Of a stretch of DNA of 64,000 nt, positions 1 through 53,881 are shown in pieces. The DNA is from Ginglymostoma cirratum (Eukaryota): contig JAHRHZ010000046.1 of assembly GCA_024137785.1 (NCBI GenBank), positions 11,770,914 through 11,834,913 of the forward strand, given 5' to 3'. How positions within the stretch are numbered: position 1 is the first letter of the stretch; every line of letters starts with the position of its first letter. The notes under the pieces were generated by a model that had not been told where the DNA came from, ran no database searches, and worked only from the letters and a program-made list of their open reading frames with translations. The position numbers and the translations under genes were made by a program.

Positions 1-174
1 CCCCCTCTCTCCCTATTTATTTCAGAACCCTCTTCCCCTCCCCCATTTCTGATGAAGGGTTTAGGCCCGAAACGTCAAGTTTTCCTGCTCCTATGATGCT
101 GCTTGACCTGCTGTGTTCATCCAGCCCCATGCTTGTTATCTCGGATTCTCCAGCATCTGCAGTACCTTTTATCT
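1..174 (+). mobile_element. Penelope-derived short element, family A (3' end with tail; runs off the window start)
   Basis: Shares ctgatgaagggtttaggcccgaaacgtcaagttttcctgctcc...ttgttatctc plus the tail ggattctccagcatctgcagtacc with several other copies in this window. Confidence 0.8.
49..76 (+). ncRNA. Minimal hammerhead-ribozyme-like core (putative)
   Basis: CTGATGA-A-GGGT-TTAG-GCCC-GAAA-CG-TC: both catalytic boxes, a 4-bp stem II, palindromic ACGT in place of stem III, and a GUC triplet. Stem I is weak. Confidence 0.65.
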
Positions 175-1302
175 AGGATACAGCATTGATCGTTCGTGAA
201 GTGACTGATAACGGCAGGGTGCTTTTTCAAGTCGCCAAAGTGACAGAATGCGATTTCAAGCAGCCAAAGTGTCTGGCTTGAACAGAAGGTCGCTGACCTG
301 GCCACTTCAGTATAAACAGAAGTTTTCATACCTTTATAGAAGTTTCACCCTCTGAGAGAAGTTTCATCCCCTGACAGAATTACAGATGTCTCGCACCTTT
401 ACAAACGTTTCCCACCCAATCCTACTCAGGCAGGAAGTTTAAGACAGTTTCCACATACCCCTGTGTAGGAAGATAAGGAGCATAACAAACCCATTAACAC
501 CTCACTAGAAGCCTATATGTAAACATCTTGCTGGGGGAATCATAAACAATGAAGTTGATATCTCCAAGTTAGCCAAAGTTCCTGCTATATTTTGCATCAT
601 CCTCTATGCTTAGTCATTGCAACTTTGGTTTTAAATGTTTCTTGCTGGGTTTAACTTTGTCTCGTGACCCCTGAGTCATTGAATAAATTAATGACCGTAC
701 ACACAGATAGAGACCTTGTGTCCTGTTGCATTTGTTTCGTAGCAAACTTTCTGCATGTCTTCTTTTGTCGTGCTAAAGCTTTCACCCTGTGGTGGTGTTG
801 TGATGAAAGGTTAAGATTTAAGATAAGCAGGTCAAACCAATTTTGAATTATTTGCAGCTTCATAGTTGTTCTGTCTCCTTTATCAAAATAATGTTAAAAC
901 ACGTTTGTTATTGTATGTCCACCTGAAATAAGAATGGTTCATTAAGCAGTAAGCCAACTTTGGATGTCCGTCATTGTTGAAGCCATGATACATGTAGATC
1001 CTGTCGGAAGATGATTTTTACTTTTCTTTCTGAAATATTGCTGTGAAGTCATGAGTGACTTCTTGCTCTTAGCATAATCACAGAGAGGTATATAACTTAC
1101 ATGTCGATTTACCTTGAGACTGACCATTGAGTATTGAAAAACTGAATATTAAACACAGCATCTCATTGACTAGGAATGGAGTGATAAAATTTGAATTGCA
1201 CTGTTGAGATTAGAGTTTACCCTCAGGTAATTATTGTCTCCATCAGTTTTCTTCTCATCTGTAGTGGAGCACTCTTGTGTAATAACAATAGGCGATTTAG
1301 TT

Positions 1303-1394
1303 CTGATGAAGGGTTTAGGCCCGAAACGTCAAGTTTTCCTGCTCCTATGATGCTGCTTGACCTGCTGTGTTCATCCAGCCCCATGCTTGTTATC
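1303..1394 (+). mobile_element. Penelope-derived family A insertion, tail-less, with putative hammerhead core at 1303..1330
   Basis: Identical by eye to 49..140; flanked by ttagtt at 1297..1302 and 1395..1400 (candidate 6-bp TSD). Confidence 0.8.
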
Positions 1395-1684
1395 TTAGTT
1401 TGAGTTTCCTGCCATTGTACTTGCTTGGATATACCCAAATTTGATAATTTAAATTTGTTGCCCTCTCCCCACATCTGAAGTTAAGATTTTATCTGTGGAT
1501 TAACATGTAATCTTTTTTGAAGTGCAAAAATTTGAAAATGAATAAAATGCAGCATGGTCCGATAAATATATGTTGTGCAATTGTACACTGATCTTGTGAT
1601 ATTACAGCGTGGAGGACTGCTATCTGTCTGAATTTTTGAAAAAATAAAGTGAAGTCTAAGTTTCATTTTTAGTTAAATGAAATG

Positions 1685-1822
1685 ACAATCCTCGCAGGGA
1701 CTTGAGAGTTGTTGGGGGAGGCAGACAGGAAAGTGGCGTTGAGACCAGCCATGATCTGAACAAATGACAAAGCAGATTTTAAAGGGTAGAATAGTAGCCG
1801 ACTCTTAGGTATCATGTTCCTT
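1685..1822 (+). mobile_element. Decayed CR1 LINE 3' end
   Basis: caggaaagtggcgttgagaccagccatgatctgaacaaatg... resembles the 3' UTR of the better-preserved CR1 at 61880..61966. Confidence 0.55.
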
Positions 1823-2099
1823 TGAGCAGATGCACTGATTTGGATTTTGTCTTGGTTTGAACATTTCACAAGTCGACTATTGTAAAACAGAAAATTATAC
1901 CTTCCCATCCATTAAGAAATGGAACGGTAAAATTTGCAGTAACTGTAGCGTTGACCATGTATGGCCCACATCCCTTGACTGATAAATCATTAATTCTTTG
2001 TGTTGAACACCATGTGGGGGAAGCTTTGAGGGTAGCAAGGGTGCAAAATGTGCTCGGTGGGTGACTTCAATATCCATTACCAAGAGTGGCCACTGCTGA

Positions 2100-3420
2100 C
2101 CGAGCTAGTCAAGTTCTAAAGTACCTGCTAGACTGGGTTTGTGGCAGATTGTGAGCAAATCAACTAGAAGGGAAAATCATATTTTACCTCCATCCTCACC
2201 AAATTGCCTGACTCCAGTGCATCTGTCCATAACAGTACCAGTAAGAGTGACCACTGGTCACTCCTTGTGGAGATGCAGCCCTGTCTTCACTTTGAGCGTA
2301 CCCTCCATCATGTTGGCATTATCACCATGCTGAATGGGATAGACTTAATACAGGTCCAGTAACTCAAGACTGGGCCATCAGCAGTACACAGTTGTACTCT
2401 GGTACCATCCTGGTGGTGGGGGAGGGGGAAGCTGGGTGGAAGGAAGAACGTCTCCACGGGTTGGTTTCATACATAGCGTAAATGAAGGTGATGATGTTTG
2501 TTGGAGGTCAGGCATCCCGGTCCCAGGACATCTCTGCAGGCATTCCACCACATAGTGTCCTAGACCCAACCATCTTCATCTACTTGCGTCCTTCCATCAT
2601 TTTTTCCAAGTGGGGATATGCGTTGATGATTATACGATGTTCAGCAACATGACCAATAGCTCATATTGAAACCTTCCATGTCCACATGCCCCATGCCCTA
2701 TGACCTGGACAAAATCCAGGTTAGGCTGACAAGGGTCAAGTGCCCCACAAATGCTAGACCATGAGCATCTCTGCCGAGAGAGGTTCTGGGGTTATCATTG
2801 ACCAGAAACTGAAGTGGATGAGCCATATACTCGTGGCTACAGGTATAGGTCAGAGGATAGGAATACTGTCTGCAGCAAATAACACACGACCTGACTCTCT
2901 CCATCCCATGCAAGGGAGGGGTAAGGAGAGTGGCAGAACACTCCCCACTTGACTGAAAGGGTGCAGCTTCAACAGCACTCGCTGCTAGTACCAAAGCAGC
3001 ATGTTTGCTGGCACCATGTCCCTTCTTTTTTGTTTTTGCTCTCTCTGCCAGCATCATTCAGCAACTGTTTCTGTCACCTAGAGGACGTACTGCAGGAATC
3101 CACCAATGCTGCTTTGCCAGCACCTTCCAAACTCTCACCTATTACCATCAAAAAGGACAAAAGCCGTGGATAAATAGGAACATGACCCACTTTCTAGTTG
3201 CTCTTCAAGCAACTCATCATTCTGACTTGGAAATATGTTGTTTTTCCTTCAATGTCCCTGGGTCAAAATCCTGGAACTCCTCCCACGGTAGTGTGGCTGT
3301 ACCTGCACTGAATGGACTGCAGCAGTTGGAGAAGTTAGGTTACCCCACCACCTTACAGGTAACAACAAATGCTGGCCCACCCACGGATGCTCACACCCCA
3401 TGAATGAGTTTAAAAACAAA
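2100..3420 (+). mobile_element. Decayed CR1/L2-group non-LTR retrotransposon fragments with 3' end
   Basis: Degenerate RT C-terminal motifs (VDD, DLDKIQ..ADK, GVIIDQKLKWMSHI..GQRIGIL); ends gatgctcacaccccatgaatgagtttaaaaacaaa. Exact clade uncertain. Confidence 0.65.
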
Positions 3421-3888
3421 ATATTTTGATTTTGAGCCTTCCTGTCGGCAGTGCGTTTCACTGGTTGACTTCAATGTTTGTCAGTATATGTGATATGTTA
3501 AACTAGAGGCAAGTGTAGGGGATCAGCGTGTCTGAGACTGTCTTCCAGATTTGCAACAATTGTTGTTAAATTTGTAGGCCATCTTGTCTACTGGCCCAAA
3601 AAGCTGATTACTATGTCTGAGTTTTTTTTGCTGTATACAGCTTAGTGATGTCCACTTATGTCTGCGAAAGTAAATGTTAATGCTTTTTATTCTTGACTCA
3701 AATATGTTTCCAGCATCTTCTGTTTTTCTTGGTTAATATGTGCAAGGTTGCGAATTTGGCAACTTTTACTTCAAAAGTTTCAGAATCAAATTCTCTTGTG
3801 ATTTTGGTTAAACATTACACAATTAAGGCACTATAGATATCTTGATCTCGATACTTAACGCATCTTCTACATGTGAAGAAATGGTTAA

Positions 3889-4143
<255 letters not shown>

Positions 4144-4359
4144 TAATTCCTTTAAAGCTGTTGCACATTATGGAAGTTTCGTGAATGTATATTCTATGTT
4201 TTAGTTGCAGTAAAGGGCACAATGCTTTATTTGGAATGTGCTCGATCCTATTCTTAATGTTGGCAGTAAGTACTTCAGGGTTACAATACATTTGTAGTGA
4301 TGCATATAAACCTAAATCTATGAACTGTTGGTTCAGTGTGACTTCTTAACTTGAAAACC

Positions 4360-4900
4360 TTTCTGTACAAGGCACTAGTCAGACTACATACAACAGTGTG
4401 GCCACTTTTAGTCCCCTTATTTAAGGCAACACATGTTGGCATTGAAGGCATTCCAGTTCACTAGATTGATTTGTATATGTACGTGGAACGGTTCAGTATG
4501 TTGGGCTTGGGCTTGGGCTTGTACTTGTTGGTGTTTAGAAGAGTGAAAGAAGACCCAATTGAAATGTAAGCTTCTTAGTAAGTTTGAGAGGGTAGATGTG
4601 GAGAGGTTGTTCCCCCTTGTGCTCAAGTCTAGGATCAGAAGACATAATCTGATAAAGCGGTTACCAATTTAAGACGAATGAGGACTTTTTTTTTCTCGTA
4701 AGGATGGGGAATCTGTGGAATTCTTTACTGCAGAGGACTGGTCTTTGGGTATATTTAACATTGGAATAAATTTTTGATCAGTAAAGGAATCAAAGGTTAT
4801 GGAGCCAAGGCAAGAAAGTGGATCTTTCGGTGATTAGATCAACCATGGCCTAAGTGACAAGGCACATTTGATGGGCCATCTCACTCACTTTGGTTTTGTC
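4360..4900 (+). mobile_element. Decayed CR1 LINE 3' fragment
   Basis: LYKALVR..SPYLR..LALK-like remnants and gggaatctgtggaattcttt; colinear with 61380..61950. Confidence 0.75.
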
Positions 4901-7900
4901 TGAATGTTTCTTTTACATGTTGAGTTTGTCTAATGGCAACTTGAAGCCCATTGCGTGAAATGGCTAGATAGAAATCACTTTAATTTCCTCCATTTATGTT
5001 TTGGATACATTGAGGGGGAAAAGATTATACTCCATACATTGGCTGAGTGTAAAGAACTTGCCAAGTATAGCATTGTGCATTTCCAAATCTCAATTCTTTC
5101 TAAGTGGTTGGTCCTCCAACTATCTTCGTTTGCACTCTGGAACACCACTTGTGAACCTCCGCCTTGCCATTGCTACGTAAAATATTTAATATTAAATGCA
5201 CCTAAAGTGCTGTGCAATCAATGAGTAGTCTCAATCCAATTTCCTGAAAGTGCAGGTCCATTTGAATACTAATTTTATACCAGCACTTGTACCTGACTGT
5301 GCTCCTGACGGCAGATGAAAGGTTTTTTGTTCGGTTATGATTTTGAAAGTTTGAAATGGGATTGTGAAAAGGACAAAAAGTTGTTTCTTTTTTTGTCAAG
5401 ACTAAATGTATCTTGTTTCGTGATTATAAACTTGTTCTCTAAGCATTGTGTATTTCTACCCTGCTGCAAGCTTTGAGCTGACTATACAATTTTTCATTGT
5501 GTTTTACAGACGCAACCTTTTGTGTTAACTTTGGTTTAAAAATGAGCGGCTGTGTAGTTCAGATAAATTCAGTTCTCCACAAGGTAAACTGGGTGTGGCT
5601 GGAGATGATGGGAGTTAAATAAGGTGGTATAGCATGTGTAGGACTTGGTAGGTCAGTCTCAAAACAGATGTTGGCAAATGAATTGGGTCATAGGTCATTA
5701 AATTGCAGAAATTTTATCATGGCGCCAAAGATGCATAATTAATTTTGAGAGCACCATTTGTGTTGTGAGGAAGGTTGTCTTGCCTAAACTACTTTGGTCC
5801 AGAGGTATGCATTTAAATTCCACGTGCATTAATGATATCCTGCTCTGTCTCATCTCCATTTTAAAGTACTTCACTGCCTCTGTCGTCGGCCTGCTCGTGC
5901 TTAATGCAATTTACAAATTGCAGTTATCTTCAGTCACTGGCAAAAACACTGGTCATTCTCCTCATCCACATTTCCAGTCACTACTGTGGGCAGAAGTAAT
6001 GCATTCACGTCCTTGGCTTCTCATTTTCCTTGAGTGGAGCTTCTAACCCATATCTCCTCATCACAGAGACCACTTAATTCTGCCAACATTTACATTTGCC
6101 ATAAATTCCACTATTGCATTGCTGTTCCATCTTCCTCTATACACCTTAAGCTCATGCAAAATTCTGCTGTCTATACTGTAGCTTGGTATCAAGTTCTACC
6201 CTCAATTTTGGATTGCATTTTTAAGTTGGGGAAATTTGTGCTTACCCTATCTTTGATTTTTTTTCATGTATTTCAGTTTGTCAGGGAAAAGCAATAAATT
6301 GTATCTTCAAATTGAAAATATGTAGTAATTACTTGATTTTGGGTGTAAAAACAGCATTAAGGATACCATTTTGGGACCACGAGAAATGATTGCAGATGTA
6401 TTTCTTAGATAAAAATATTTTCTAATCAGTCTATTCAGAGATGTTATGAGACACCTTGGAGCTGTGAATCTAAAGTAGTGCAATTTTCCACAGTTAATCA
6501 ATTAGAAAGTTCAGAAAATAGTGAAATTGAAAACATTTGCACTTTAAAAACTGTGAAACATTTCAGCCCTCTGGAATGAAATATGGTCAACTTAATGTTT
6601 ATTAGTGTTGAGATCCCTTCGTGTGATGTATAATGCACAATGTACCAAGGTCCACTGGCATTTTGTAAAAGTACCACATACTGTTGTGCGTATCAATAAT
6701 TTATGTTTCATCATTTTGAAATATTTGCAGTATATACTGAGCAGAGAAGGTTTCCTTAGGACGTCAGCACCTTTTAGGTATTCTTTGTTTGGAGCTAAGT
6801 TTTTTTTTAATACTTACAGACAGAAGAACTGAGCTGTAGCTGCACTCAAAAGTATATATGAAGCATTCCAAGTGTAGTAATGATTTGTTTTGTGCGTTAT
6901 GCTGTTTTGTCCTGCCTTCAGGTATTGGTGGGCATTTGAATGATGAAGTAGCTGGAGATGAGATGACCTGTTTGAATGCATTTGTTAATGTTGATTCGTG
7001 GTATGGAGGGTCTCTTGCATCTATTTAAAAATCCTGTGTTCTCGGTAATGATTTGAGTGAAATGACCCCTGCATTCTATTCACAGTCAGTCTGTCTCCCA
7101 GTGTGTACAATACAGATTATGAATATCATGAATTTACATGATACCATACAGACATGGTACAGTCTGTACCATGTAATGTGTGCACAAGACAGTAGATAAT
7201 CAACTGAGATTCTGAGTACTCTGTACAAGCTTCTTTTTTGGAGTGATTCTGTTTTCTTTAATTTTAATTTGCATGAACCTTGATGTAAGTTTGGAGGCGG
7301 TACAAACATGGTTGAACAAAGTGGGAGGTCCCTTCAGTGGTTGAGCAGAATTTGGGTGTGCTCCGGTATAATGGTCATAATATAATGGTCCAATCTCTCA
7401 TTCACGACACCACAGTCTTCCCAATGTCTTCCATGGGGCATTTGATGAAACAGCAAGCAGAATGACCATTTAGTCTTTTTGCACAGACTCTCGTGTAGCA
7501 GGAGTTGAGCCTTATTGAACTGTCACTTTGGCTATAGCTTTTTAAATGGGATACAAAGCTGTCAGCAGTCAGTTGGGCAACCACTACTACTTTGAAGCTC
7601 ATGACCCCAAAATCCTGTTTGCTGGCCTGCAGTGGAGTTGCAGCAGTTTGGGAAGCCCTGACCTTGATAACCAGCCCAACCAAACATTACTAATCAAATG
7701 GGTTAACAGAGAAAATTTGTCTTCAATGGTGGCGAACTAACTGAATCACTGATGTTTTTCTGGCAAAATTGCTTTTTGCTGTTATTTGCCTTTGAGTGAC
7801 TGTAATTTCTGCGCAAAACAGTCAGACAAAATATGAAGTGCAGAAAAAAATTGATACAATGCGCATGTTAAATCCCCTAAACTCTTTCAAAAGTCCTAAC

Positions 7901-9297
7901 TTTGACTCAGATTGCACAGCATTATCTGCCAAAAGCAGACCCTTGGTTCTGAATGTGCATAGTTGATCTAAAGGGGGTCAGTAACAATTAGAGTTCAAAA
8001 ATATAAGTAAGGTCCAGTTTATGTACAATTGTTAAGTAGATTGTGTTTGATTTTTAATAAAAGCCGCACTTTCAAGTGAAATTTCAAGTGAGTATGTGGT
8101 CTGTAATTAGTGAAGTTGAACACTTGCACCTGTTATAGCTTTAGTTCCTTTTGTTTTTCAATTCTGTTGTCTTCCCGCTGGAAGAATCTGCTTATTTTGT
8201 CTTTTAGTCTGAGGTAGAAACTAAATTTAAATATGTATGAACAAAAGGAAATTGGAACTATTTTTGCTCTATGAAGTATATTAAGCTGAGGGGCATGGAA
8301 ACTGGATACTAACTTGTCCCTTCCCTTTTTTTGAAGAAGTTTTACAGATTCATTTTCCAATCAGGATTCAAGCATGACAACACTAATATCAGGTTTAAAC
8401 TAAGCAAATGTAAATGTTGTAATTGTTGACAACGATCAAATGTCAACCGCACAATCCAGCTGTTTCTTCCCTAAATATTACTATATCAGGATCCTTGTGT
8501 TTCCTCCTCCAGGTTGTCTGACCCGAAAGCTACTGTTAAGCAAAACTCTGATTCCTTCTCACAGTTGAGTTGAACACCCCATCTTCTCCCTGCAGTTGTG
8601 CTGACCAGTAGGTTTCCAGACTGGAGTGCAACTCTGCATACCCACTTCACCCATGTTGTGATATCTAATTGTCAAACAAGGTGAAGGTTGCCCAGTGCAG
8701 CCAAAGCCTATGCCATGCCTTCCTCATCATTTCTAAATACTTGGACATGCGATCAACTACGTACATTTTCTATTGATGACTTTTATGTGATTGAACAGGA
8801 ATGCATCCTCGAACAAGTCACGTTCTTGAGATTGAATTGATAGTCATTTCATAGCTTCTTTAACAATTGTGTATCTGCTTATTATGATGTTGTATATTTC
8901 TAGCAATAGATAGGATTGAAAACATTAAGTGGCTGCAGCTCTTTTTAATGAAAATGAAAGAAATTAAGTCAACAAGACTTATCTCACAGTTGACTTAACA
9001 CTAGCTGTATACTGTGTTTTTGTAATTTGCCTATTTGTTCACCAGTTCTAAATTAGTTCATCTAGTGCAAGTCCCTTGATATTATAGATTTTCAACCTTA
9101 GTAATAGTGCTGTGAGCCATTGCCCAAGTCCTTGGAAATTCAAAATATTTTATCCGAGCAGGTTCTTTTGACAGCTGTGCTCCTAGAGGAGTTATGTGGC
9201 TTGGTAATTCTGAAATGTTATTATGTAGCTGAGCAATTTTGCTGTCTTTTTGTTTTGTGGGGCAAGAGCAGAGCATTGTCATAATCGGTGTTGTTAA

Positions 9298-9540
<243 letters not shown>

Positions 9541-10099
9541 TAAGTGGTAACATGTCAAGACCTTCATGGCCGAGCTTGTTGATTGCTTCCGTAGTTAGTT
9601 ATAGTCAGTAACCTGAAGTTTTGTGTGTCTAATCAATTAATTTGTGATCACGGCTAATGAATAGGTGATCTAATTAAGGAATTTTAGTGTGAAAGGTCAT
9701 CTGAGTACCTTTATTACATAATTAAAGTAATTTTTGGTAACTACTGTGTTGAATATCTGGTTTTGTTGACAAGTTTTTGCAATGGACTCGGGTCACTTAT
9801 CTCTCTTGCTGTTTGATAGATGGATGAGAATTTTAACTGAAGAAACAAAACATAGTATCAGAAATGATGCAACCATATAATCTGATTGTGGAAAATAGTC
9901 TTGGGTCTTAATCTCCATCTGAGCAAATGAGGGAAACCAAAGTGGAAGTTGCAGAATAGAACCTGTAATGGATTTTAGAAATATTTTTAAAGTGAAAGAT
10001 ATAGGGATAGGATGTTGGAATGGGATGTGTGGATAACTTTCCGAAGTGCCAAATGCGCTTGCTGTCAAATGGTCATTCTCCTCTTATCTTCTATGAAGC

Positions 10100-10432
10100 T
10101 CAGAATCTCTACAGTGCAGAAAGTGGCCATTTGGCCTATTGGTCTGCACTGACCCTGCAAAGAGCATTCCATCCGGATCCACTCCAACACCATGTCTGTA
10201 ATTCTGCATGGGGTTTTATTTTACGGTTAACCCGCATTATCTGCACATTCCTGGACACGATGGGACTGTTTTTTTAGTACGGTGAATCCACGTAACCGAA
10301 ATATCTTCGGACTAGGGGAGGAAACGCACGTAGACAGGTTGGGAGTGTGTTCAAACTCGAAACAGTTGCCCCAGGCTAGAATGGAACCTGGGTCCCTGGT
10401 GCTTCTAGGCAGCAGCGAGTTGTCACTGCTGT
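10100..10432 (-). mobile_element. HE1/V-SINE-like tRNA-derived SINE, decayed
   Basis: Colinear with 63635..63962 (agaatctctacagtgcagaaagtggccatt...gaacctgggtccctggtgc). Confidence 0.75.
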
Positions 10433-13830: not shown

Positions 13831-13953
<123 letters not shown>

Positions 13954-15140: not shown

Positions 15141-16651
15141 TTCAGTCTGTATTCTTGACACATTATAAACTGGGTGTTTAAAAAAGTTTTGCACTTCATA
15201 GCCCCAAAGCAGCTATGGTGAGTCTGATGTGATCTTTCGTATATTTTAATACTGCAATATTTTATTCCATTGTTTTTTAAATTTTATATCTCCACAACTC
15301 CATTGGAGGTGGAATTCTGCATTTTTTTTAGCCTACAGTACAACAATTTGCATCAGAAAATAATCACCGACTGTCTCCTGTAGTCGATTCAGGCCACATG
15401 GATCTGCTTGAAGTTTAAGAAGGATTGGGAATTCTCCCATCATTTGAGAGCATAGTCCTAAGCATCAATCTTTTTATAAACCATTGAGTGGAAAATAAGA
15501 CCTGCCAAGTAAATACTGACAGCGGCAGTGGGGCTTTTTTACTTTTTGTGGTCTAGGTGGTCAGCTTAGATGTGCCATGGTTTGCACGTGGCAACATCCA
15601 TCTCCTTTTACTTTAATCTTTTCTGATGAAACTTTGGTTAGCTGCCCACATTTCCTTAGCTTGATGCCGTTTGCTTCCTCCTTCCTCTCCCCACTTCGTG
15701 CTGTGATGTATGAATTTATTTCAAAATGCAGATGTGCTATTGATCCAAGTTATTTTTCTGCTAAGGTCAGTAGCTATTTTCCACATGAGAAAATGGAGTA
15801 TAAATGACCAACTGTGCAAATCACTGAAATCCTGTTGTGACCCTTTGCCCATACTTGTGTATCCAGGAGTCATTAAGTAATGTTCAGAAATAGGATTTGC
15901 TGCTGATTTTGACTTTTGCTTTTCTCACTGTTGTGAAGTCCTGCTATTATTTTAAGTCCAGTTTGGCAGAGACTAGTTTTGGGCCTCCTTGTCTTTATAA
16001 CTGGGAACCATAGCTGTTGAATTGCTGGACATCTGTCTTTAGCAGTTTGGACACTTGAAACTTTGGCACGAGACTTTAAAAGAAACTTTGCAGTGTAGTT
16101 TAGTGTAGATCAGGAGTGAACAATTTATGGATTAAGTTTTCCTGGTTAAAAATCTCATAGTCTCAGTTCTGCATGAGTGTGTGGCAACATCTGTTGATTG
16201 GGTTCTGGAATATGTTTAACTTGCGTTAATTGGCATTTTCATTCAGAAGCTCATTGTGTGGGTTGTTGAGCTTCCAGTTCCTGGAACATTGTAAAACATC
16301 CCCGTATTTGCCGATGTGGAAATTACGTTATGCCGATGTAGTCCTCGGATACAAGTGAACTAGTCATAGATAACCTTACCAGGAAAATTTGATCTCTCTT
16401 GTCAGTTGCAGCAGTTTTGTTTTGAGGTTTGGAATTAACTTGAAATCCTCCAATATGCAGCATGGATTGCAGACCTTTATTCAGTAACATTCATGCAGGC
16501 ATAATGTTAATGGTACAGAAACAGGCCATTCACCCCGACAGTTCTGTGCCAGTGTTAGCTGCTACGTAAGTCACCTCTTAGTTATTTCACATTGAAGGAT
16601 GCATTTTTAATCTTTTTGGTCCTTAAATATTTATCTAGCTTCCTATTAAAT

Positions 16652-16958
16652 GTGGCACGATGGCTCAGCGGGTGGCAATTCTGCTGACAGCACCATGAAT
16701 CCAGGTTCAGTTCCAGCCTTGGTTGATTGCCTGTGTGGAGTTTGCACATTCTCTCCATTTCTGTGTTGGTTTCCTCCAGGTGCTCCGGTTTCTTCTCTCG
16801 GTCCAAAGATGTGCGGGTTGACCATTGGTAATGCAGGGTTACAGGAATGGGGGGTAGCGGGTGGGTCTGGGTGGGACGTTCTTGGGAGGGTTGGTGTGGA
16901 AGGATGGGCTAAATGGCCTGCTTACACACTAAGAATTTCATGTTTCTATGATTCCATG
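16652..16958 (+). mobile_element. HE1/V-SINE-like tRNA-derived SINE
   Basis: tRNA-like head (tggctcagcggg...ggttcagttcc), V-domain-like tgtgtggagtttgcacattctc...ggtttcctccaggtgctccggtttc, CR1-like tail ending ttctatgattccatga. Confidence 0.85.
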
Positions 16959-19746: not shown

Positions 19747-19956
<210 letters not shown>

Positions 19957-20002
19957 TGATATTTTATTTAAGCTTGTTTCTCTTAGACTGATATTTAATT
20001 TA

Positions 20003-22327: not shown

Positions 22328-23420
22328 ACTAAGACACCTACGTCAGACTCCTGCTCATTGACTACAGCTCCACCTTGAGCACCATTATCCCCTCCAGACT
22401 GATCTCAAAACTGCCGCCTGCACCTGGATCCTCGGCTTTTTACCCATCGGCTGCAATTAGTGAGTGGAGGTAACTGCACCTCCTACACAATAATAGTCAA
22501 CACTGGAGCCCACAAGGATGCGCGCCAGCCCGCTCCTGTACTCCCTGTACACCTACGACTGTGTTGCTAAATTCTGAACCAACACCACCTGCAAGTTCGC
22601 GAATGACACCACCGTAGCGGGCGGGATATCTAAGAACAACGAGTCAGAATGACCAAGGGAGCTAGAGGGCTTGGTGGTATGGTGCAATGAAAACAGTCTG
22701 TCTCTCGGCGTCGGCAAAACTCAAGAACTGCTCATTGACTTCAGAAAGAAAGGAGGAGAACTCATCTACATCAACAGAACTGAGTTTGAGAAAGTGAAAA
22801 GCATAAAGTTCCTTGGAGTGACAATATCTGATGACCTGTCCTGGTCTCCACATGTAAATGCGGCAGTCAAGAAGGCACAACAACACTTATTTTCTTTCTC
22901 GGGCAGCTCAGGAAAGTTGGCGTGTCCATAAGGTCCCTCACCAGCTTCTACAGATACACCATTGAAAGCATACTGTCTGGGTGCATAACGGCCTCGTATG
23001 GCAACTGATCTGCCCAGGACCGTAAAAAAACTACAGAAGGTGGCATTCACTGCCCAGACCATCACGGAAGCCAACTTTCCATCCGTGGACTCCATTTCCA
23101 CGGCTCGCTGACATGGAAGGGCAACCAACATCATCAAAGACCCGTTGCACCCTGGTAATGATCTCCTACAACCTCTTCCGTCGGGGAGAAGATACAGAAG
23201 CCTGAACGCGCGCCCAAGCAAGTTAAGGAACAGCTGCTTTCTGGCCGTTATTGGACTAATTGAGGCTAGAGCCCATTCAACAATGTAACCTGCAATGTAT
23301 GCCTCTGAGTGCTTATGATCTGTATATCCTTTGCTTGCTGTGATCTGCCTGCACTGCTCGTAAACCAAGCTTTTCAGTAGTTTGGGACACGTGACAATTT
23401 AAAAGAAAAGGAATCAAATG
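22328..23420 (+). mobile_element. Rex1/Babar-like non-LTR retrotransposon, 5'-truncated and frameshifted
   Basis: TYVRLLLIDYSS, KFANDTTV, WCNENSLSL..KTQELLIDFRK, KFLGVTISDDLSW, FYRYTIESILSGCITASYGN. Confidence 0.85.
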
Positions 23421-23841
23421 TGGTTCCTAAATACTTAGTTTTCAGTCCTTAGTTGTATTATGTTGGGGCATGTGAAAAGCTTGAACATGTAATCCTTCAC
23501 ATTTTTTTGATTGTCAGTTTGCTTGAAGTAATGACTTTGCAAATAGTTTTATAATCTACTTTCGCTAACTTTTATTGATTCGACTAAAAACCTGAAAAGG
23601 TGCTTTAGTGTCTGTCAATATCTCTTGGGGACAACTGATAAGTTTGCCAAGCTGTGTTGCTGCAAATTTCTTCTCCAGGTGGCCAAAGAATGCTTTGATG
23701 GCAAGTGATGCTGTCTGTTACTCTGAAGAAATATTCAGGCAATTGAATGGGGCAAGGCACAAATTTTTGCCCCCCCCATTAGAGGATTTCCCTTCTTCAT
23801 ATTTCACAGGGACTTCTCAGCATATGAACCTCAGAAATGCA

Positions 23842-23964
23842 TCAGAGATAAAAAGGTACTGCAGATGCTGGAGAATCCGAGATAACAAGCATGGGGCTGG
23901 CGTCAAGTTTTCCTGCTCCTCTGATGCTGCTTGACCTGCTGTGTTCATCCAGCCCCATGCTTGT
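23842..23964. mobile_element. Penelope-derived family A fold-back insertion with deleted centre and 15-bp TSD
   Basis: Minus arm with tail joined at 23900/23901 to a plus arm; aacctcagaaatgca is repeated at 23827..23841 and 23965..23979. Confidence 0.85.
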
Positions 23965-24802
23965 AACCTCAGAAATGCACTGCCTTTGTGCTGTATATTT
24001 CGCTTCCTTGCTAATGTTCAGTACTGCTCTGTTATTGTTAACTATTTGGCAAGCAGCATTTTTAAAAAGAAAATCCATTTTCCAAGCATGACCTTTGCGC
24101 TAATTTATTCATATGCTATCAGTTCACGTGATTTTAGAATCTCAATGTAAAAAGTACTGAATACAGAAAATATTCACATGGGCTGAGGCGAATTCCTGCT
24201 TTTCAGCTGAGAGCATTTAGTACAATCTGGGGAAAGGAAAAAAACGTTCTACATGTTTGTGAAACATTTGATGGGTTTTTCTTTGAGTAATCTAAAGCTA
24301 AGTTTTAGTGGGTGTTGAATTTTACTCCAAAAGAGCATTTGCAACAGCTAATTGCACTTGCACTTAATTGTCCGCCTCCTGATGATTACAAAACATGCTT
24401 AATTATAGTTGTGATATCTCCCCTTATTTTTGCATTTGTCAATTAATACTTATCCAATCATTAATGTTTAAAGCATCCAATAAATTTTGAATCTTGGTTT
24501 GAATGGTTGTATACTTGCAATTACAGAATTATGAGCACAAGAGGGAAGCCATTCGAACCAGATGTCCTGTGTTGATCTTTTGGTACAGCTATTTAATCAG
24601 TTTTCTTACCTATTCTTTCCCCATAGCCTTGTAGAATAATTTTCACTTTAAGTATTCACTTTGCTTGCAAATATTACTATTGGATCTGTTTGGGTCATTG
24701 TTTTAAGCAATGCATTCATGATTGCAGCAGTTGACATTTTAAGTAAAGTAGTGTCCTCTGGAACCTGTTTGCGACTGGCAAGAAACATTTTGCAATTTTT
24801 TG

Positions 24803-26599: not shown

Positions 26600-27542
26600 A
26601 TTGATTTTTTTTTTGTCACATGTACTGAAATACAGTGAAAAACTTTGTTTACGAGCGGTACAGGCAGGTCACTGCAAGCAGAGGACGTACAGATCAAAAA
26701 GCCTTAAAGGCATACATTGCAGGTTACATTATTTGAGTTTAGAGCCCATTCAACAGTGTGATAACGGCCAGAAAGAAGCTGCACCTGAACCTGCTTGTGC
26801 ATGTTCAGGCTTCTGTATCTACAGCCTGACAGAAGAGGTTGTAGGAGGTCATTACCAGGGTGCGATGGGTTTTTGATGACGTTGGCTGCCTTTCTGTGGC
26901 CTCAAGCCATGGAAATGGACTCCATGGATGGAAAGTTGGCTTCCGAGATGGTCTGGGCTGTGCGCTCCACCTTGTGTAGTTTTTTACGGTCCTGAGCAGA
27001 GCAGTTGCCATATGAGGCCATTATGCACCCGGACAGTATGCTTTCAATAGTGCACCTGTAGAAGCTGGTGAGCGACCTTATGGACATGCCAAATTTCCTG
27101 AGCTGCCTGAAGAAGAAGGAGGATTTTTGTGCCTTCGTTATTGTCGCATTTACATGGAAAGTCCAGGACAGGTTGTCAGTTGTCGTCACGCCGAGGAACT
27201 TGATGCAGTCCACCCACTCAACCTCAGCTCTTGCTGTAGATGGGGGCATGTTCCCCTCCTTTCTTTCTGAAGTCGATGATCAGTTTAGTTTTACTGACTT
27301 TGAGAGACAGATTGTTTTGGTTGCACCACGTCCCAAGTCGTCTGTCTCCCTTCGATATTTTGACTCGTCATTGTTAGATATCCGTCCCACTACGGCGGTG
27401 TCATCAGCAAACTTGCAGATGGCGTTCCTTTGGAATTTAGCAACACAGTCGTAGGTTTACAGGGAGTACAGTAGATGGCAGGAGATGCATCCTTGGGGGC
27501 TCCAGTGTTGAGTATTATTATGGAGGAGGTGCAGTTAACTAT
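26600..27542 (-). mobile_element. Rex1/Babar-like non-LTR retrotransposon, 5'-truncated
   Basis: Minus ORF 26902..27249: IKFLGVTTTDNLSW...FFRQLRKFGMSIRSLTSFYRCTIESILSGCIMASYGNCSAQDRKKL; KFADDT at ~27400; homologous to 22328..23420. Confidence 0.88.
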
Positions 27543-28308: not shown

Positions 28309-28578
<270 letters not shown>

Positions 28579-29487
28579 TAAGAGCTGCTTGAGTTGCAAC
28601 TTCTTCATTTAAACTTGTTGAGTGTAGAGTGGATACAAGTGACTTGTTTTTCAAGCAGTGTTGCTTGTTTCCACACAATGCGTGATAGATCACAAACATT
28701 ACAAAGCTTAACATTTTTTGAAATTGAGCTTGATATTGGTGGCTTAATAAATGGCTCTACATATGCTCTGAATATGGCAAAGTCTGTCTAATTGGTTGTG
28801 ATCTCCTTGAGATTTCTTTCCCTCTCTGACTGAAGTGATACAAGATGGATTAATTAAAGCCTTAACATGTGTGCTTGATCATCTTAAAAATTGCTAGGAA
28901 GAATGTATGTAGACAGAAAATGGAGGCAAAAAGTAATATTCAAATTACAGTTATTTGCTAGCTTAGGAGACTCAGTGTTGGAGATGTTACTTGCGATCAA
29001 ATGACATCTTATCCTGTGTGTTGCACAGTATGGATGAGAAACTGTTCGGTAATGACGTTAGTCCCTCTCTAAGCGATTGTTTGCTGGAACTAGAGGGAAA
29101 AAAAACATTGTACTATTTTTGATTCATCTGATTGTGACCTGAATCTACTCATCCCCAACAGCAACATGGCCCAGCCCCTGATGACTTAATCATTTGGTTT
29201 GTCAGTCACAGATCCAGTGATGTTGTGACATGCTGAACAAAAACCTTTCTGGAATTTAAGTTTCTTGAGAAATAAATCATGTGTTGAATTGCCTTGAATT
29301 GTGACCCAAACAATAAGATTTTGGTGAAGTTGATATTCTGCAGTCTGTTTTTCCAACGTGTTACTGATGTAGTAGAAACGTTATTGGAACCCAAGGGGAT
29401 ATCGAATGCTTCTTTGAGAACTCTTGATAGTCATAGAGCGCCGGAACTGCTCTTAATGCATGTCTTCCTACATAATGCTGTTCATTA

Positions 29488-29721
29488 GAGATAGTAGGAA
29501 CTGCCAATGCTGGAGAATCTGAGATAACAGGGCGTACAGCTGGACGAACACAGCAGGCCAAGCAGCATCAGAGGAGCAGGAACGCTGACGTTTCGGGTCT
29601 GGACCCTTCTTCAGAAATGGCCCATTTCTGAAGAAGGGTCCAGACCCGAAACGTCAGCGTTCCTGCTCCTCTGATGCTGCTTGGCCTGCTGTGTTCGTCC
29701 AGCTGTACGCCTTGTTATCTC
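29488..29721. mobile_element. Penelope-derived family A fold-back element: 2x100-bp palindrome plus 33-nt tail
   Basis: 29521..29620 is the reverse complement of 29622..29721 with one mismatch; hammerhead-like cores at 29628..29655 (+) and 29587..29614 (-). Confidence 0.9.
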
Positions 29722-30939
29722 TAAGTCAGTTCATTACCTCATTTACCAGTAAGAAATTGTACAGCACTTGATTCTTTCGAAGTTGAAGAAAACTGGAAAA
29801 AGTCAAAATTGGAGAAAAATTCTGCTTCTTTGGATCTTGTTGAACTTGATGGGGCTTTTCAATCCGAGACGCATGAACTGTTGGTATGGTGTTTAATGTC
29901 TGAGATCTAGTTTGTGCCGGTAACCTAGATAATTGTAAAGTTTTGGAATGGTAAAGTTTTACCGTTGGTTCAATATCTTGCATAATTAAAAGTTGTCCCA
30001 CAGGGCATCCATGCTAGCTTATGAATGGGAGCGTTAGTGAGATCAAGATTTGAAGGAGATGTGAAATGGGACTAAGGAAGAGAGGGTATAGAAAGTGTCA
30101 TTTAAGAGATTGGTGCTATGGTGAAACTAGGTGCAGTTATCTTTAATTTGTGTCAAATGTATTTCATCCAAGTTGGATCACTTGACAGAAGGTGAATGGT
30201 TCAATCGTACAGCATTGAGTCTTCACAAAAGAAACTGTAGCGACAAGGTGCACTGTGATTCTGCACGCTAGCATGTCTTTGTAGTCTCCGGTAAAATTGA
30301 TTGTCTACACTACTTGGCACAGCTTAAGAGGTTCAGCTCAGTGTAGTTTTTAGACTGAGGCTACCCAGTAGATTTAAATTTTAGCGTAATTTGGGAAACT
30401 ATAAAGGTGTCTTTGAGAGCGAGGATGTTGCAATGTAGATGTTGAAGTTTGGTCATGCCTTTCTGATGTGTCCGGTGCTTTTAATAGAAAGTTGGCGTTT
30501 TTGATTAGCTTAGAAAATAAGCTATTTAAATCTACTTAACTATTGATAGGTAGCTGACCTAATTTTGTAGGCTAAGTTAGGTGTTTGAGTTCTCTGTTAG
30601 TCGCCATTAAACCAGTTAATGCTTTCCTGTGTCCCACCAAATACGTTACATCCATCTTACTGCTGCTCCCGTCTGTTTTTGAGTATTTCACTTTTTTGTT
30701 TGTTTTATTTGCAATGAGGAAAAAAACCTGAAATTTTGTACAACCTGTAATAGTGCATCCTGAAGAGTTTGTATTTTGATATTCCGAAATAAATATTGCA
30801 TTCTATGTTTGCCACTTGCGAAGATGACACCTGAGTGTCTCTCCTAAATGTCATCTAAATATCTGACCAGATAAGAAATTTTACAGTGCAAATCCAGGAG
30901 CAAGAAGTGAGGAAAGGTTAATTCAAAAATATAAAATAG

Positions 30940-31158
<219 letters not shown>

Positions 31159-33270: not shown

Positions 33271-34037
33271 AAATTTAGAAACCATGTAGGCAACAGAGCA
33301 AGTTGTCACTCTGCCTCTTGGTGTCTGTTTGTATAATTTAAAAGCTTACTGTTGCACTATTGATCCAGCTTCTTTTGTTGAAAATATGTTTCTTTTCCTC
33401 ATTTGCTCATGCTCCTTCAGTCTTGTGATACTGCCATTTTAGCCAAGTTTAAATTTTTTTACGCGGACTCTTTAGTGTTCCCTCGATGTTCTTATCTATA
33501 TTGCCTCCCCAGATTCACATTATGTGTATCTGTCGCTTTTCTGAGCTCTCTTCAACAGTTCTACTTACTAATGAGTAATAATTTGGCTTTTGGTGTTGAT
33601 AATTCCACAATTATGACTGCTGGCGATGCCTCCAGAGAATCTCAACCTCGTTCTCCATTTGCACTCCTTTTTGTATCATGAATTGCATGGTCTGAAATTG
33701 AATACAGCCAGTGCAAAGCTGCCAAGTCTTTTCTGATTCTGAAGGAATAGCCTGTATCCCCACAGATATTCTGACTGAATTTTTCCCTAATGATGGACTG
33801 TCTGATGAACTTGTAATGTCCCAGAAGGAATATAACAAGTTTGTTTTAAAAACTACGTTGGCACACATACCACTTTTTTTTGTTGTATTGATGTGTACAG
33901 ATGTGAAGTTTGTACATTGTGAAATTTTGGTGCACAGATTTTCTTGAATGCTGCCATGCAGAGTTAAATTCCTGGAAAATTAATCTTTTTTTAAATTTTA
34001 TTCCCAGGCTGCACAATGGGCTTCTCACCTTTGCTAA

Positions 34038-34489
<452 letters not shown>

Positions 34490-40190: not shown

Positions 40191-40340
<150 letters not shown>

Positions 40341-44141: not shown

Positions 44142-44280
44142 CATGATACAGGCACATAGGAGCAATTCATATCCAGCATGTACTTGGCTCCATGCGCAAA
44201 CAAATTGAAATCAGTCAGTGGTAGTGACTGTTAAAGCTATTAATTTTTGAGGGGCTTGCTAACTGGAGTTAAAATTGTAT

Positions 44281-44477
44281 CAGAGATAATAGGTACTGCA
44301 GATTCTGGGGAATCCGAGATAACAAAGTGTGGAGCTGGACGAACACAGCAGGCCAAGCAGCATCATTGGAGCAGGAAAGTTTGACGTTTCGAGTATAGGC
44401 CCGAAACGTCAAGCTTTCGTGCTCCTATGATGCTGCTTGGCCTGCTGTGTTTGTCCAGCTCCACACCTTGTTATCTC
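44281..44477. mobile_element. Penelope-derived family A fold-back element (~80-bp arms plus 33-nt tail)
   Basis: 44316..~44395 pairs with ~44397..44477 with a few mismatches; the fold-back point lies inside hammerhead stem II. Confidence 0.85.
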
Positions 44478-49441: not shown

Positions 49442-49699
<258 letters not shown>

Positions 49700-50068
49700 T
49701 GATGTCATGGCCTGTTGAAGTTCAGGTTATGAGCGTTGTCTTCATTAGCTTGTGTTTTTTGTAGATGTTGGTATGTCAATCTCACTTAAGTATTTGAAAA
49801 ATCTGCAGTTTGTAATGGGGTTTTCAACGTAGATTATTCCAATTTCTCAACTTAGAAGTGATCAGGTGGAGATTATTAGTGGTAATCACTTCATCAATGA
49901 TTTAGAATCCATAATTGTAATGTGGCAACATTGTCCATTTTCTCTCCTTCCAAAGGTTTAAAGATCATTTGGAATTACTGTTGTGGGGCATGGATTAGAG
50001 CTATAGTACAGATACTTTGAATTTTTGTTCCAAAATTTTGGTGCCAGAAGTGTCTTTCCTCCTCTTAG

Positions 50069-50392
<324 letters not shown>

Positions 50393-50534
50393 TAAATGGG
50401 TGTATTTAAGTAGCGCTTTATAACCTCTGAAACATCTCAGTGCTTCAAATGGGCCGATTGATTTTTATAGCAGATATTAAAGTAATGCAAAATGTAAGAT
50501 CTGTCCTGCTGACAGTGGGACTGCATGAGCAGCA

Positions 50535-50893
50535 ATGGGGAAGTGATGGCCTAGTGATGGTATCACTGGACTGTTAATCCCGCAACCCAGGTCGTGTCCT
50601 GGAAACCTGACTTGGAATCCTGTCATGGTAGATGGTGGAATTTGTATTCAATAAAAACCTGGAATTAAGAGTCAAATGATGACCATGAATTTATTGCAGA
50701 ATATCAACAAGATCCATCTGATTTACAAACTGCCATCCTTAACTGGCATGGGATGGTCTTATCTGGTCCTACGTGTGACTCAGACCCACAGCAATGCTTT
50801 TGACTCTTAACTGCTCTATGGGGAATTGGGGATGGGCAAGAAGTGATGGCCTAGCCAGTGACACCCTCATCCCATGAATGAGTTTTTAAAAAA
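50535..50893 (+). mobile_element. Second tRNA-derived SINE family
   Basis: tRNA-like head tggcctagtgatggtatcactggactgttaatcc...; 3' end gccagtgacaccctcatcccatgaatgagtttttaaaaaa; homologous to 11460..11797. Confidence 0.7.
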
Positions 50894-52923
50894 TTGGATG
50901 AATGATCCTTCAGTTTGGTTTCAGTGTTTTGTTGATAAAAGAGGAATATTATACTGGAAGCTCTCTCACAGATGTGAGAAGAGAAACCATTTTAGGTGAT
51001 GTGGTATCATTGATGCAGCAGGAAAGAAGGAAAAGGAGAGAGCAGAGCTACGTTTGCAGACTAGAAAACAGAGACTGGAGAAGAGTGGGGTGCTTAATCA
51101 TGTTGGAAGGCTATGGAGATGTTGAGGATATGAGACACAAATGAGGTGTCGCAGTCGCAGAATTTGGTGACTTTGACGATGATCGTTGTTGTAAGTGAAG
51201 TGAAATGCTTGATTGCAGGTCTTCAGTCAACCTAATCGCATTCCAGTCATGTTTAAATTTGACACCAGATTTCTGAATTGTAAGGATGTCGTTGTGGTAT
51301 TTGAAGAGTACTTGAGACAGTCATGGAGGAGATGGATATAAGTATTATTGTCGTCTTGAATGGTAGGTGAGTAACTGCGGACGTTGATATGCAAGACGTA
51401 GGAAGATCTATCTCTCAAGGGTCTGTAGTGTAGGTGGTTTGGTGCGCCATGGCAAGATAATGTGTTACGAGGAAGTAATTTTAATAATGTGTCAGCAGTA
51501 AAGTTCCCGGTGTGTGAAAACAATAAGTCCTAACGTTCAAGGAAAGATTATATGTGTGGATTGACTAGCCACTATGTTTGAGAGAGTGGGTGGTGGTGAG
51601 CCTGCCGGGTGACCAGCACTGAGGGAGGCCATGTGTAAGTATAACCTGAAGTCATTCACAAGAAGACTTTGCATGCACAGAAGCAAGATAGAAAAGAGAA
51701 ATCAACGAGGAAGTTACCTGGTGGGGAAGTGGAGTACTGAGAGAAACTTTTGACCAACAAAAGTGAAGCCTGTTCGACTTGAGCAAAGGCATGAGTGAAG
51801 GGCTTCAGGAGATGATTGAGAACTGATGGTAGTCTGAGATTTGCATGAAAATTGACAAATAAATCCAGCATCTAGAGAGCCAGAGTTCGTATGAAGTCTG
51901 GAGAGCAGTTCTGGATGAGAGCAGAGGCCAAAGCACTATTCGATTTCCCATGGAGGTTGCCAAGTTCTCACTGCACTTGTATTGGAATGGCAACAAGAAC
52001 TTGAATTGAAAATTGCTACTCTGTTGCAATATTTCTAGATTGTACTTAAAAGTAGTCCAAGTTAACAGCAATGAAGATTTTGCTCATTTGCGCACCAAAT
52101 TGTACTGTTGCATTGGTCGACTTGGTTTTTTCAGGAAACTTTGTGACTTGGTATGCCTTTTATAATGTATGCATCATTCTTGATATTGCTAGGCTAGGAA
52201 AGTTGTGGGCAATTAAAAATGTTTGCATTGTCATGGAAGTTCTTATGCTTTGAGTTGCTTAAACATGGACGCTTGTGTTGAACCGTGCTATGCAGTGATA
52301 TTTTAACATGCACGGATCAGAGGCCAGCTGGAGTATAATTAATGAGTTAAAACTTTGTGGTAACTTGCAATTTGTTGGAATCGACCGATAAGATTGTGCT
52401 CATTTGATATTTTGGATTACAGGATATTAAGGGTCTTCTGTTGCTTATGAATAATTTTTGGCATGTAACAAAATACGTTGTAATGAGCAAATCTAATTGT
52501 ATGAAATGGCAGGAAGTAATTGGCATTTTCACTGCTTCAGCTGTTCTTCTGCACTGTGTATAAAGAGCAGAATGTAGGCAGTGAAAACTAGTAAGATCTG
52601 AGATCAAAGATACTTGACAACCTATTCTAACATTTCTTCGATGTATAGTTTTGATATTTTGCTTTTCTCAAAAAGAAACTACTTAATCTTTATTGCACTT
52701 CCAATGTTTGCCTAATCTGCTGACTCCACTTGCTTTCTCTCACAACTTCGAACCCAGCTAGTTGGAAATTATTTTTCCTCCTTGTTGCTGTGTGAAAGCT
52801 CTCCATGTTATTGCAGTGTAATTGACAAGCATAGAGACTGTGAATTAGATATTTCTATGATGAAAGGAGTAAACAAGTTTCTTTTGTCGAGAGTGTGCTG
52901 CAGAATGGATCATCTTAAGAAAG

Positions 52924-52948
52924 TGTCATGTCATGTCATGTCATGTCA
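52924..52948. repeat. (TGTCA)5 microsatellite
   Basis: Five perfect units read directly. Confidence 0.9.
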
Positions 52949-53019
52949 AATATTAATCAGCACAGCTTCAGCACAGTAAAATAATGCTGTTGGAGTTCCT
53001 CAAAGCAGCATATTCATTT

Positions 53020-53370
53020 GCTTCATCGGCCATGTCCTCTTTGTCTTTGATTTCAGAATGGGATTTGTTGATGGCCATGTACCATTTTCAGTCCCACTCT
53101 CAACTCTTCCAACAATGAAGCGGGACCCAGGCTGCCTTGAAAAATGGCAGGCAATATTTGCACCTTGTAGGATTATCTAGGGCTTAATATCCCAATCAGT
53201 ACTCTGAGCTTGAACATTGTCACTGCTTCCATAATTAAGATCCTCCACTATCAGTATTTTGGGCAGCTTAACTGAACCAACCATGTCAATGCCACGAGTA
53301 AAAGAACAGAGCAGCTAGCCTCTTTGCAACAAGTGGCGCACCTCCTGACTACTCACTGTTCCCTCAACAT
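53020..53370 (+). mobile_element. Decayed CR1/L2-group LINE fragment running into the gap
   Basis: Colinear with ~2600..2910 (aaatggcaggcaatatttgcacc, cacctcctgactactc). Confidence 0.5.
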
Positions 53371-53770
53371 NNNNNNNNNNNNNNNNNNNNNNNNNNNNNN
53401 NNNNNNNNNNNNNNNNNNNNNNNNNNNNNNNNNNNNNNNNNNNNNNNNNNNNNNNNNNNNNNNNNNNNNNNNNNNNNNNNNNNNNNNNNNNNNNNNNNNN
53501 NNNNNNNNNNNNNNNNNNNNNNNNNNNNNNNNNNNNNNNNNNNNNNNNNNNNNNNNNNNNNNNNNNNNNNNNNNNNNNNNNNNNNNNNNNNNNNNNNNNN
53601 NNNNNNNNNNNNNNNNNNNNNNNNNNNNNNNNNNNNNNNNNNNNNNNNNNNNNNNNNNNNNNNNNNNNNNNNNNNNNNNNNNNNNNNNNNNNNNNNNNNN
53701 NNNNNNNNNNNNNNNNNNNNNNNNNNNNNNNNNNNNNNNNNNNNNNNNNNNNNNNNNNNNNNNNNNNNNN
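53371..53770. other. Assembly gap (400 N)
   Basis: Run of N characters. Confidence 1.
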
Positions 53771-53881
53771 TCTTCAGAAAAAATTTTTCTGAAGAAGGGT
53801 CTAGCCCCGAAACGTCAGCCTTCCTGCTCCTCTGATGCTGCTTGGCCTGCTGTGTTCATCCAGATCTACACCTTGTTATCC
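53771..53881 (+). mobile_element. Penelope-derived family A element (palindrome centre and right arm) with putative hammerhead core at 53789..53816
   Basis: tcttcagaaaaa-a-tttttctgaaga centre, then ctgaagaagggtctagccccgaaacgtc...ccttgttatc. Confidence 0.8.

Follow-up and report, generated by a model that had tools for sequence, protein, structure and literature searches.

Minimal hammerhead ribozymes of metazoan Penelope-like elements (PLEs) were described in 2014 (Cervera and De la Pena, PMC4209133), and an extra nucleotide between CUGANGA and stem II is among their listed hallmarks, both in the text of that paper and in the consensus CUGANGAH of its Fig. S3. The role of these ribozymes has been called unclear (PMC8557442, PMC11167929). 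We have analysed a 64,000-nt stretch of the genome of the shark Ginglymostoma cirratum (assembly GCA_024137785.1, contig JAHRHZ010000046.1, positions 11,770,914 to 11,834,913 of the forward strand; hereafter the window), which lies within the muskelin gene and contains five hammerhead cores of 28 nt, each reading CTGA(T/A)GA-A-stem II-GAAA-CGTC, four on the forward strand and one on the reverse. We conclude with considerable confidence that these cores are end-pieces of an abundant shark PLE inserted in muskelin introns, where they are likely passive passengers. The cores are located as follows:

49..76, forward strand: minimal hammerhead core 1, with a 4-bp stem I, a 4-bp stem II and ACGU; predicted cut after 76; first coding intron of muskelin.
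1303..1330, forward strand: minimal hammerhead core 2, with a stem I of only 2 bp; first coding intron of muskelin.
29587..29614, reverse strand (read from 29614 to 29587): minimal hammerhead core antisense to muskelin.
29628..29655, forward strand: minimal hammerhead core, predicted to be sequestered in a hairpin.
53789..53816, forward strand: minimal hammerhead core with three of four stem II pairs.

The positions and strands given in a first-pass annotation of this DNA are confirmed by the sequence, and the cores exceed chance expectation. A loose hammerhead pattern matched 12 times in the window against 5.45 expected, a number reached by none of 100 shuffles, while the full descriptor (both catalytic boxes, a stem II of at least 3 bp and NUH, stem I not being included) recovered exactly the five cores, against 0-1 matches in 20 first-order Markov controls. 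A scan with Rfam 15 matched no hammerhead family at E values up to 5 and gave only hairpin matches to miRNA models over inverted repeats, below the gathering scores. The catalytic boxes CUGANGA and GAAA, the NUH, a G-C pair at G10.1-C11.1 and the palindrome ACGU as minimal helix III (as the annotation had it) are present in all five cores. Stem II is fully paired (4/4) except at core 53789 (3/4), where GGG-UCUAGC-CCC has a broken pair and is not one of the variants that a hammerhead tolerates, as the annotation had it. Stem I, previously given as 2-3 bp, has four pairs at core 49 (AUUU/AAGU) and only two at each of the remaining cores, the 5' strand having been lost at core 1303; a helix I of 2-4 bp is at the weak end of the published 2-5 bp range. 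The additional A after CUGANGA, which had been flagged as a caveat, is instead the conserved nucleotide of the PLE consensus CUGANGAH (PMC4209133). Assignment to the minimal type I hammerheads of the Penelope-like class is thus upheld, every sequence-level feature of that class being present and catalysis being predicted. With the metazoan PLE ribozymes of PMC4209133 the shark cores share CUGANGAH, G10.1-C11.1, palindromic 15.2/16.2 positions, a short helix I, location in a pseudo-long terminal repeat (pseudo-LTR), mostly dispersed truncated copies and pairs on opposite strands. They differ in having a stem II of only 4 bp and in their number (at least 68,000 exact shark cores, against 4,000-9,000 for coelacanth and Xenopus); Table S1 and Fig. 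S3 of that paper include no cartilaginous fish.

The carrier can be recognized from copies elsewhere in the genome, which extend upstream into an open reading frame (ORF) with RVT_1 and GIY-YIG domains. In one 811-aa frame, Pfam detected RVT_1 (E=1.8e-08) and GIY-YIG (E=2.8e-04), and GIY-YIG was above cut-off in two other copies; the protein also has a DKG motif, a CX4CxxC linker and a CCHH endonuclease motif, and the endonuclease is C-terminal. A whole unit is present at locus L101, where a core is followed by an ATG about 140 nt past the predicted cut, an interrupted ORF and a second core 3,494 nt on, and a similar tandem unit, with pseudo-LTRs bearing the hammerhead, is found at locus L095. 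The element is thus about 3.5 kb long and consists of a hammerhead-bearing pseudo-LTR, about 140 nt, an ORF for reverse transcriptase (RT) and GIY-YIG, and the next pseudo-LTR. By its sequence features, including a tail of 30-40 bp, inverted 5' copies and variable target-site duplications, it is an endonuclease-bearing (EN+) PLE. A point against the explanation given here is that no copy inspected has an intact full-length ORF. Among named sequences, the protein is most closely related to those of carpet sharks (77-92%), and a search of PDB sequences with the ORF gave no match. Exact copies of the cores number 55,274 and 12,939 genome-wide (at least 68,213), those of a downstream 32-mer 141,326 and those of the 95-mer common to cores 49 and 1303 12,539; the reversed-pattern controls for these counts were all 0. 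The family makes up 3.4% of a scattered sample of 156 kb (a rough estimate, as 16 of 40 random stretches were usable); for 257 kb surrounding the window the figure is 3.6%. The young short repeat family of the first-pass annotation is indeed young; it is not a stand-alone short repeat and consists of end-pieces of a PLE of autonomous type. On the antisense strand of the endonuclease region (L058-L086), a look-alike CTGAGGA...GAAA recurs; it lacks stem II and is not a hammerhead.

Since the CX4CxxC linker is present, the element is of Neptune/Nematis type as defined by Craig et al. 2021 (PMC8557442) and not of Penelope/Poseidon type, which lacks it; an assignment to Poseidon was dropped for this reason. 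The CX2-5CxxC linker, the CCHH and DKG motifs, the C-terminal endonuclease, the inverted 5' copies and the tail are all shared with Neptune/Nematis, the placement being by motifs; a difference is that microsatellite targeting was not seen in the inspected junctions. Poseidon of Anolis carolinensis (Frangieh et al. 2024, PMC11167929) likewise combines RT with a C-terminal GIY-YIG, has two 3' end sites 30-40 nt apart, uses uncut RNA as template and has its hammerhead at the pseudo-LTR/ORF junction. However, its ORF begins inside the ribozyme, whereas in the shark the ATG lies well beyond it and both 3' ends precede the ATG. A further comparison is with the non-LTR retrozymes (bioRxiv 10.64898/2026.07.22.740005), which share a type I hammerhead and a PLE origin. 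These are head-to-tail tandem arrays of units that each carry a hammerhead and no ORF; the copies in the window derive from a protein-coding element, pieces of which occur singly or head to head, and membership was rejected.

The window holds seven insertions of this one family, three of them without a complete core:

1..175, forward strand: PLE 3' piece with pyrimidine-rich pseudo-LTR, minimal hammerhead, downstream segment and a tail of about 35 nt; youngest subfamily; its 5' end is outside the window.
1297..1400, forward strand: solo short insertion beginning at the core; 6-bp duplication TTAGTT (1297-1302 and 1395-1400).
23828..23979, both strands: head-to-head insertion of the same PLE family, without a core; 14-bp duplication ACCTCAGAAATGCA.
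29487..29721, both strands: head-to-head insertion with a tailed copy on the reverse strand and a short copy on the forward strand; 8-bp duplication GTTCATTA.
44276..44477, both strands: head-to-head insertion in which neither copy has its CUGANGA box; 11-bp duplication TGCTAACTGGA.
53771..53880, forward strand: short copy after the start of an inverted partner that enters a 400-N gap (53371-53770).
54846..54975, both strands: head-to-head insertion without a CUGANGA box; 10-bp duplication GCCTTTGATG.

Target-site duplications of 6-14 bp flank all five window insertions whose two flanks are readable, and duplications of at least 9 bp occur at 11 of 25 loci outside the window, against a shuffled mean of 0.9. 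The copy at 1..175 is 99% identical to the one at L106. The 95/95 identity of the copies bearing cores 49 and 1303 is expected, as their subfamily has the 12,539 exact copies counted above, and neither local duplication nor gene conversion needs to be invoked. A retrozyme or circle spanning these two cores was also rejected, because the DNA between them does not recur as a unit and only 176-485 matches another repeat. This 310-bp piece comes from a different repeat family, looks LTR-like by eye, matches many copies at 94% and directly abuts the PLE tail, and so the first PLE copy probably inserted into it. Gaps of 400 N, such as 53371-53770 and those at many other loci, are frequently located within or next to inverted PLE pairs, which suggests that the palindromes break the assembly. 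The head-to-head insertions form long intronic hairpins (29521-29721, 98.5%; 44316-44477, 90%), possible substrates of ADAR or Dicer.

The ends of the inserted copies were counted for the 119 copies that cover a downstream anchor in 960 kb of unselected DNA. The 3' ends fall into two classes, 56/119 at +90..+98 and 52/119 at +124..+131, the upper class being recovered also with a longer reference; in the anole element, two internal RT start sites explain the PLE tail of 30-40 bp (PMC11167929). After removal of 16 gap-adjacent copies, 36 of the remaining 103 5' ends lie at -6..+1 of the core, a density of 4.5 per base; within the core the density is 0.88, and immediately upstream it is 0.17. 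In a second, pattern-picked set, which shares a few loci with the first, 25 of 58 core-bearing copies begin at -6..+1 and four at -60..-7. That copies begin at the cut site was rejected: one such end was found among the 67 ends between -6 and +45 in the first set and none among 18 in the second. Just upstream of core 49 there are two motifs, which by consensus we read as TATA-like and Initiator (Inr)-like elements:

14..20, forward strand: TATA-like TATTTAT, 31 nt upstream of A45; putative promoter element.
43..49, forward strand: Initiator-like CCATTTC, with the putative transcription start at A45; 45-48 are also the 5' strand of stem I.

Together with this spacing, the pile-up of 5' ends immediately ahead of the core and an excess of G at the junction suggest that transcription starts there. 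Where the base preceding ATTTCTGA is not C, it is G in 2,868 cases genome-wide, A in 2,116 and T in 904 (49% G against a background of 27%), and an extra G is known to mark capped full-length L1 insertions (PMC11702581). The cap argument rests on these genome-wide counts because the small alignments (12 G of 36 at -6..+1) leave it unclear. Similar promoter motifs have been proposed for a rotifer pseudo-LTR (PMC3846280); Penelope of D. virilis has a TATA-less internal promoter (PMC2377424). At five loci (L305, L306, L307, L313 and L325), short re-copied pieces starting ATTTC lie between the target duplication and the element and resemble repeated template jumps at the 5' end of an RNA.

Three observations weigh against a start at this position. 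The G excess drops to 35% one base further 5', the G is part of the duplicated target in at least 5 of 25 inspected gap-free loci, and the commonest 5' end is -2 and not -3. The last of these would fit a different origin of the pile-up, namely that RT stalls at the C-rich tract, that the endonuclease cuts at ATT, or that TTT/GAT shares microhomology with A+T-rich targets, any of which would leave the identity and the passivity of the copies unchanged. The anole PLE endonuclease indeed prefers ATT (PMC11167929), the junction contains ATT, and many junctions show an extra T or a target-derived GAT. However, there is no peak at the other ATT sites (around -33 and -29), G is commonest at the -3 junction while A dominates internal truncations (15 A and 5 G of 31), and neither the 31-nt spacing of the two promoter-like motifs nor the re-copied ATTTC pieces are accounted for; moreover, the 20 copies of a second hammerhead family (family B, below) likewise have unrelated sequence only a few bases before the core. 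We regard these alternatives as rather unlikely, and a transcription start about 3 nt before the core, with the short copies as run-off cDNAs of uncut RNA, as probable. In its full form our proposal is more tentative and less likely than not: the hammerhead would be the first ~31 nt of a capped transcript, with stem I formed from the first four bases, the SINE-like copies of 95-135 bp would be run-off cDNAs reaching the capped end, and cut RNA would almost never be inserted, probably in sister families too.

The following scheme could link these elements. Transcription likely starts at the Inr-like A three bases before the core, and the RT of the element likely initiates internally at one of two downstream sites, as in the anole PLE, from where it would copy toward the 5' end of uncut RNA. 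Templates starting at the ribozyme would yield the copies of 95-135 bp that begin there, and read-through tandem transcripts the longer, ORF-containing copies. The hammerhead would act as a dimer, together with the element protein, or both, clipping the ~31-nt leader in a minority of transcripts, and inserted copies would then decay neutrally. If the proposal holds in the full form given above, the ribozyme would be a self-decapping switch that removes transcripts from the transposition pool, and the genome would be a population-scale record bearing on what PLE hammerheads do. The end counts indicate that in vivo it is uncut RNA that is copied, in agreement with the anole result in vitro, and suggest that the transcript begins with the ribozyme. 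The family is also valuable as material, being young and offering over 68,000 exact ribozyme cores, target-site duplications and countable 5' and 3' ends. A literature search, with repeat databases (Repbase/Dfam) and subscription journals outside it, returned no description of a shark PLE hammerhead and none of a transcription start at a PLE hammerhead. The retrozyme preprint covers one chondrichthyan, and a catalogue entry for the family may already exist.

The motif could also be a non-catalytic relic, or a DNA- or protein-binding signal that resembles a hammerhead. In line with this reading there is no Rfam match, monomer folds are no more stable than those of shuffles and do not give the active form, and cut RNA is not seen as template. 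The pattern of variation bears on this question. Among 71 copies starting at or before -2, the common variants within the motif are confined to N7, loop II, one U-G/U-A pair and CpG sites. Non-CpG catalytic positions are changed in 11/710 cells against 112/3,337 in the flank (p=0.011); after stratification by base, 11 changes are observed and 23.1 expected (p=0.004), and in 31 young copies one is observed and 7.0 are expected. The excess conservation of the catalytic boxes that the first-pass annotation had named as a check is thus found at non-CpG positions, whereas G12, which lies in a CpG, is mutated in 8/71 copies, like the upstream CpG Gs (2/20 and 4/23). Core, stem II and ACGU are all retained in 46/119 copies. 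The second check, covariation of stem II, fails within the family, where the only stem change is U-G/U-A (52/71 and 15/71) and two-sided compensatory changes, which would have argued against a relic, are absent. Across families the result points to covariation. The 99 descriptor matches fall into four families (A to D) of 68, 20, 4 and 2 copies, with five matches outside these, and the four have different stems II and palindromes (ACGU or AGCU) with pairing and catalytic boxes kept; families C and D, however, consist of only four and two copies. Stem I strands from one family pair with each other (mean 2.5-4.0 bp); strands of A/B combined with those of C/D form almost no pairs (0-1.55 bp). The extra base between 9 and 10.1 is A in 65 of the 67 matches of the family that carry an inserted base, and helix III is CG in 48/68, most of the others being CpG decay; family C has AGCU. 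The minimal hammerhead families other than that of the window cores number at least three (L237-L296, L116, L143 and the flanks of the window), with stems GGGUC/GACCC and a GUU site, GGGGC/GCUCC and AGCU, and GUUACC/GGUAAC.

Since four families have swapped stems I and II and the palindrome while keeping pairing and catalytic boxes, and since homologous motifs cleave in vitro and lose activity upon C3 or G8 mutation (PMC11167929), we consider a relic or binding signal very unlikely. The pairing kept across families and the conservation of the core, set against G12 mutating at the neutral rate, suggest selection in the transposing lineages followed by neutral decay, and the hammerhead fold has likely been selected in those lineages. 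A point to be set against this is that core conservation in the young copies could reflect selection after insertion or a constraint at the DNA level.

As for the host gene, an exon translation matches shark muskelin at 100%. By tblastn, the muskelin exons are on the forward strand, the first coding exon lying about 23.4 kb upstream of the window and the gene continuing for about 34 kb downstream. The exon blocks in the window (approximate, from tblastn) are:

3985-4134, 9394-9537, 13840-13938 and 19834-19947, forward strand: muskelin exon blocks.
28309-28500, 31006-31086, 34382-34447 and 40206-40322, forward strand: muskelin exon blocks.
49481-49699, 50069-50290 and 55131-55259, forward strand: muskelin exon blocks.

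All five cores are therefore intronic: 49 and 1303 are in the first coding intron, the pair at 29.6 kb is flanked by the exons at 28.3-28.5 and 31.0 kb, and core 53789 by those at 50.1-50.3 and 55.1 kb. This bears out the claim of four sense-strand cores in muskelin introns; a relevance of these cores to muskelin RNA is not supported. The segment 29521-29721 folds as a single hairpin (-223 kcal/mol, z=-28) of about 100 bp with 98.5% identity, in which core 29628 is buried, and the CUGA box of core 53789 is held in a hairpin of 11 bp formed with what is left of its inverted partner. Core 1303 has lost a strand of stem I, and the splice joint 28500-31006 (GT..AG), which spans the 29.6-kb pair, is found in contigs from three of four runs (three studies). 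Domesticated intronic hammerheads of the RECK type are single-copy, have a stable monomeric fold and are conserved across species. Such an origin was rejected for the window cores, which are high-copy, young and without a stable active monomer fold. The RECK type is named in a figure legend of PMC6155905.

It might still be argued that the sense cores cut muskelin pre-mRNA often enough to matter, mainly through a cis dimer of cores 49 and 1303, 1,254 nt apart, in which core 49 cuts after 1330. Both catalytic cores are intact, identical, on the sense strand and in one intron, a stem I of 4 bp is possible between core 49 and the site at 1330, and tens of thousands of transcribed copies could provide partners in trans. 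However, identity is what the abundance of the subfamily predicts, and the active dimer (-9.8 kcal/mol) is 19 kcal/mol above the best dimer fold (-28.8 kcal/mol). Published PLE minimal hammerheads are inactive as monomers and weak as dimers (PMC4209133), the anole hammerhead requires its protein, and no RNA-seq ends were seen at its site (PMC11167929). Family copies anchored in the gene show no depletion on the sense strand (seven sense, six antisense). We therefore judge such cutting highly improbable: given the hairpins, the poor dimer energy, the splice joint, the strand balance and the weak published activity, muskelin pre-mRNA is predicted to be cut seldom if ever, the copies are likely passive passengers and the consequence for muskelin is small. 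Several points temper this view. The dimer energy covers one of two stems I and includes neither tertiary contacts nor protein; the runs are contigs, which carry no information on RNA ends, strand or level, and their splice evidence concerns the 29.6-kb intron and not the introns of 49, 1303 and 53789; splicing in some molecules is compatible with cutting in others; and the strand count is small. At the density found across the window, one insertion per ~9 kb, such cores must be present in most shark genes. In four runs that are probably of RNA, the summed contig depth across 29484-29911 is 25,000-260,000, whereas neighbouring positions reach about 10 at most; the family sequence is very abundant in those libraries.

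The window also contains other repeats. Two LINE-like fragments of about 930 bp (22468-23397 and 26613-27540) are inverted relative to each other and 80% identical, and one frame matches Pfam ALKBH8_N. Three fragments with open frames (58459-58749, 61220-61949 and 62543-63006) have no Pfam match and presumably resemble the 3' ends of CR1-type LINEs. Finally, copies of a further short repeat, 73-81% identical, are found at 16649-16817, 34036-34231, 63770-63957 and 10095-10415.

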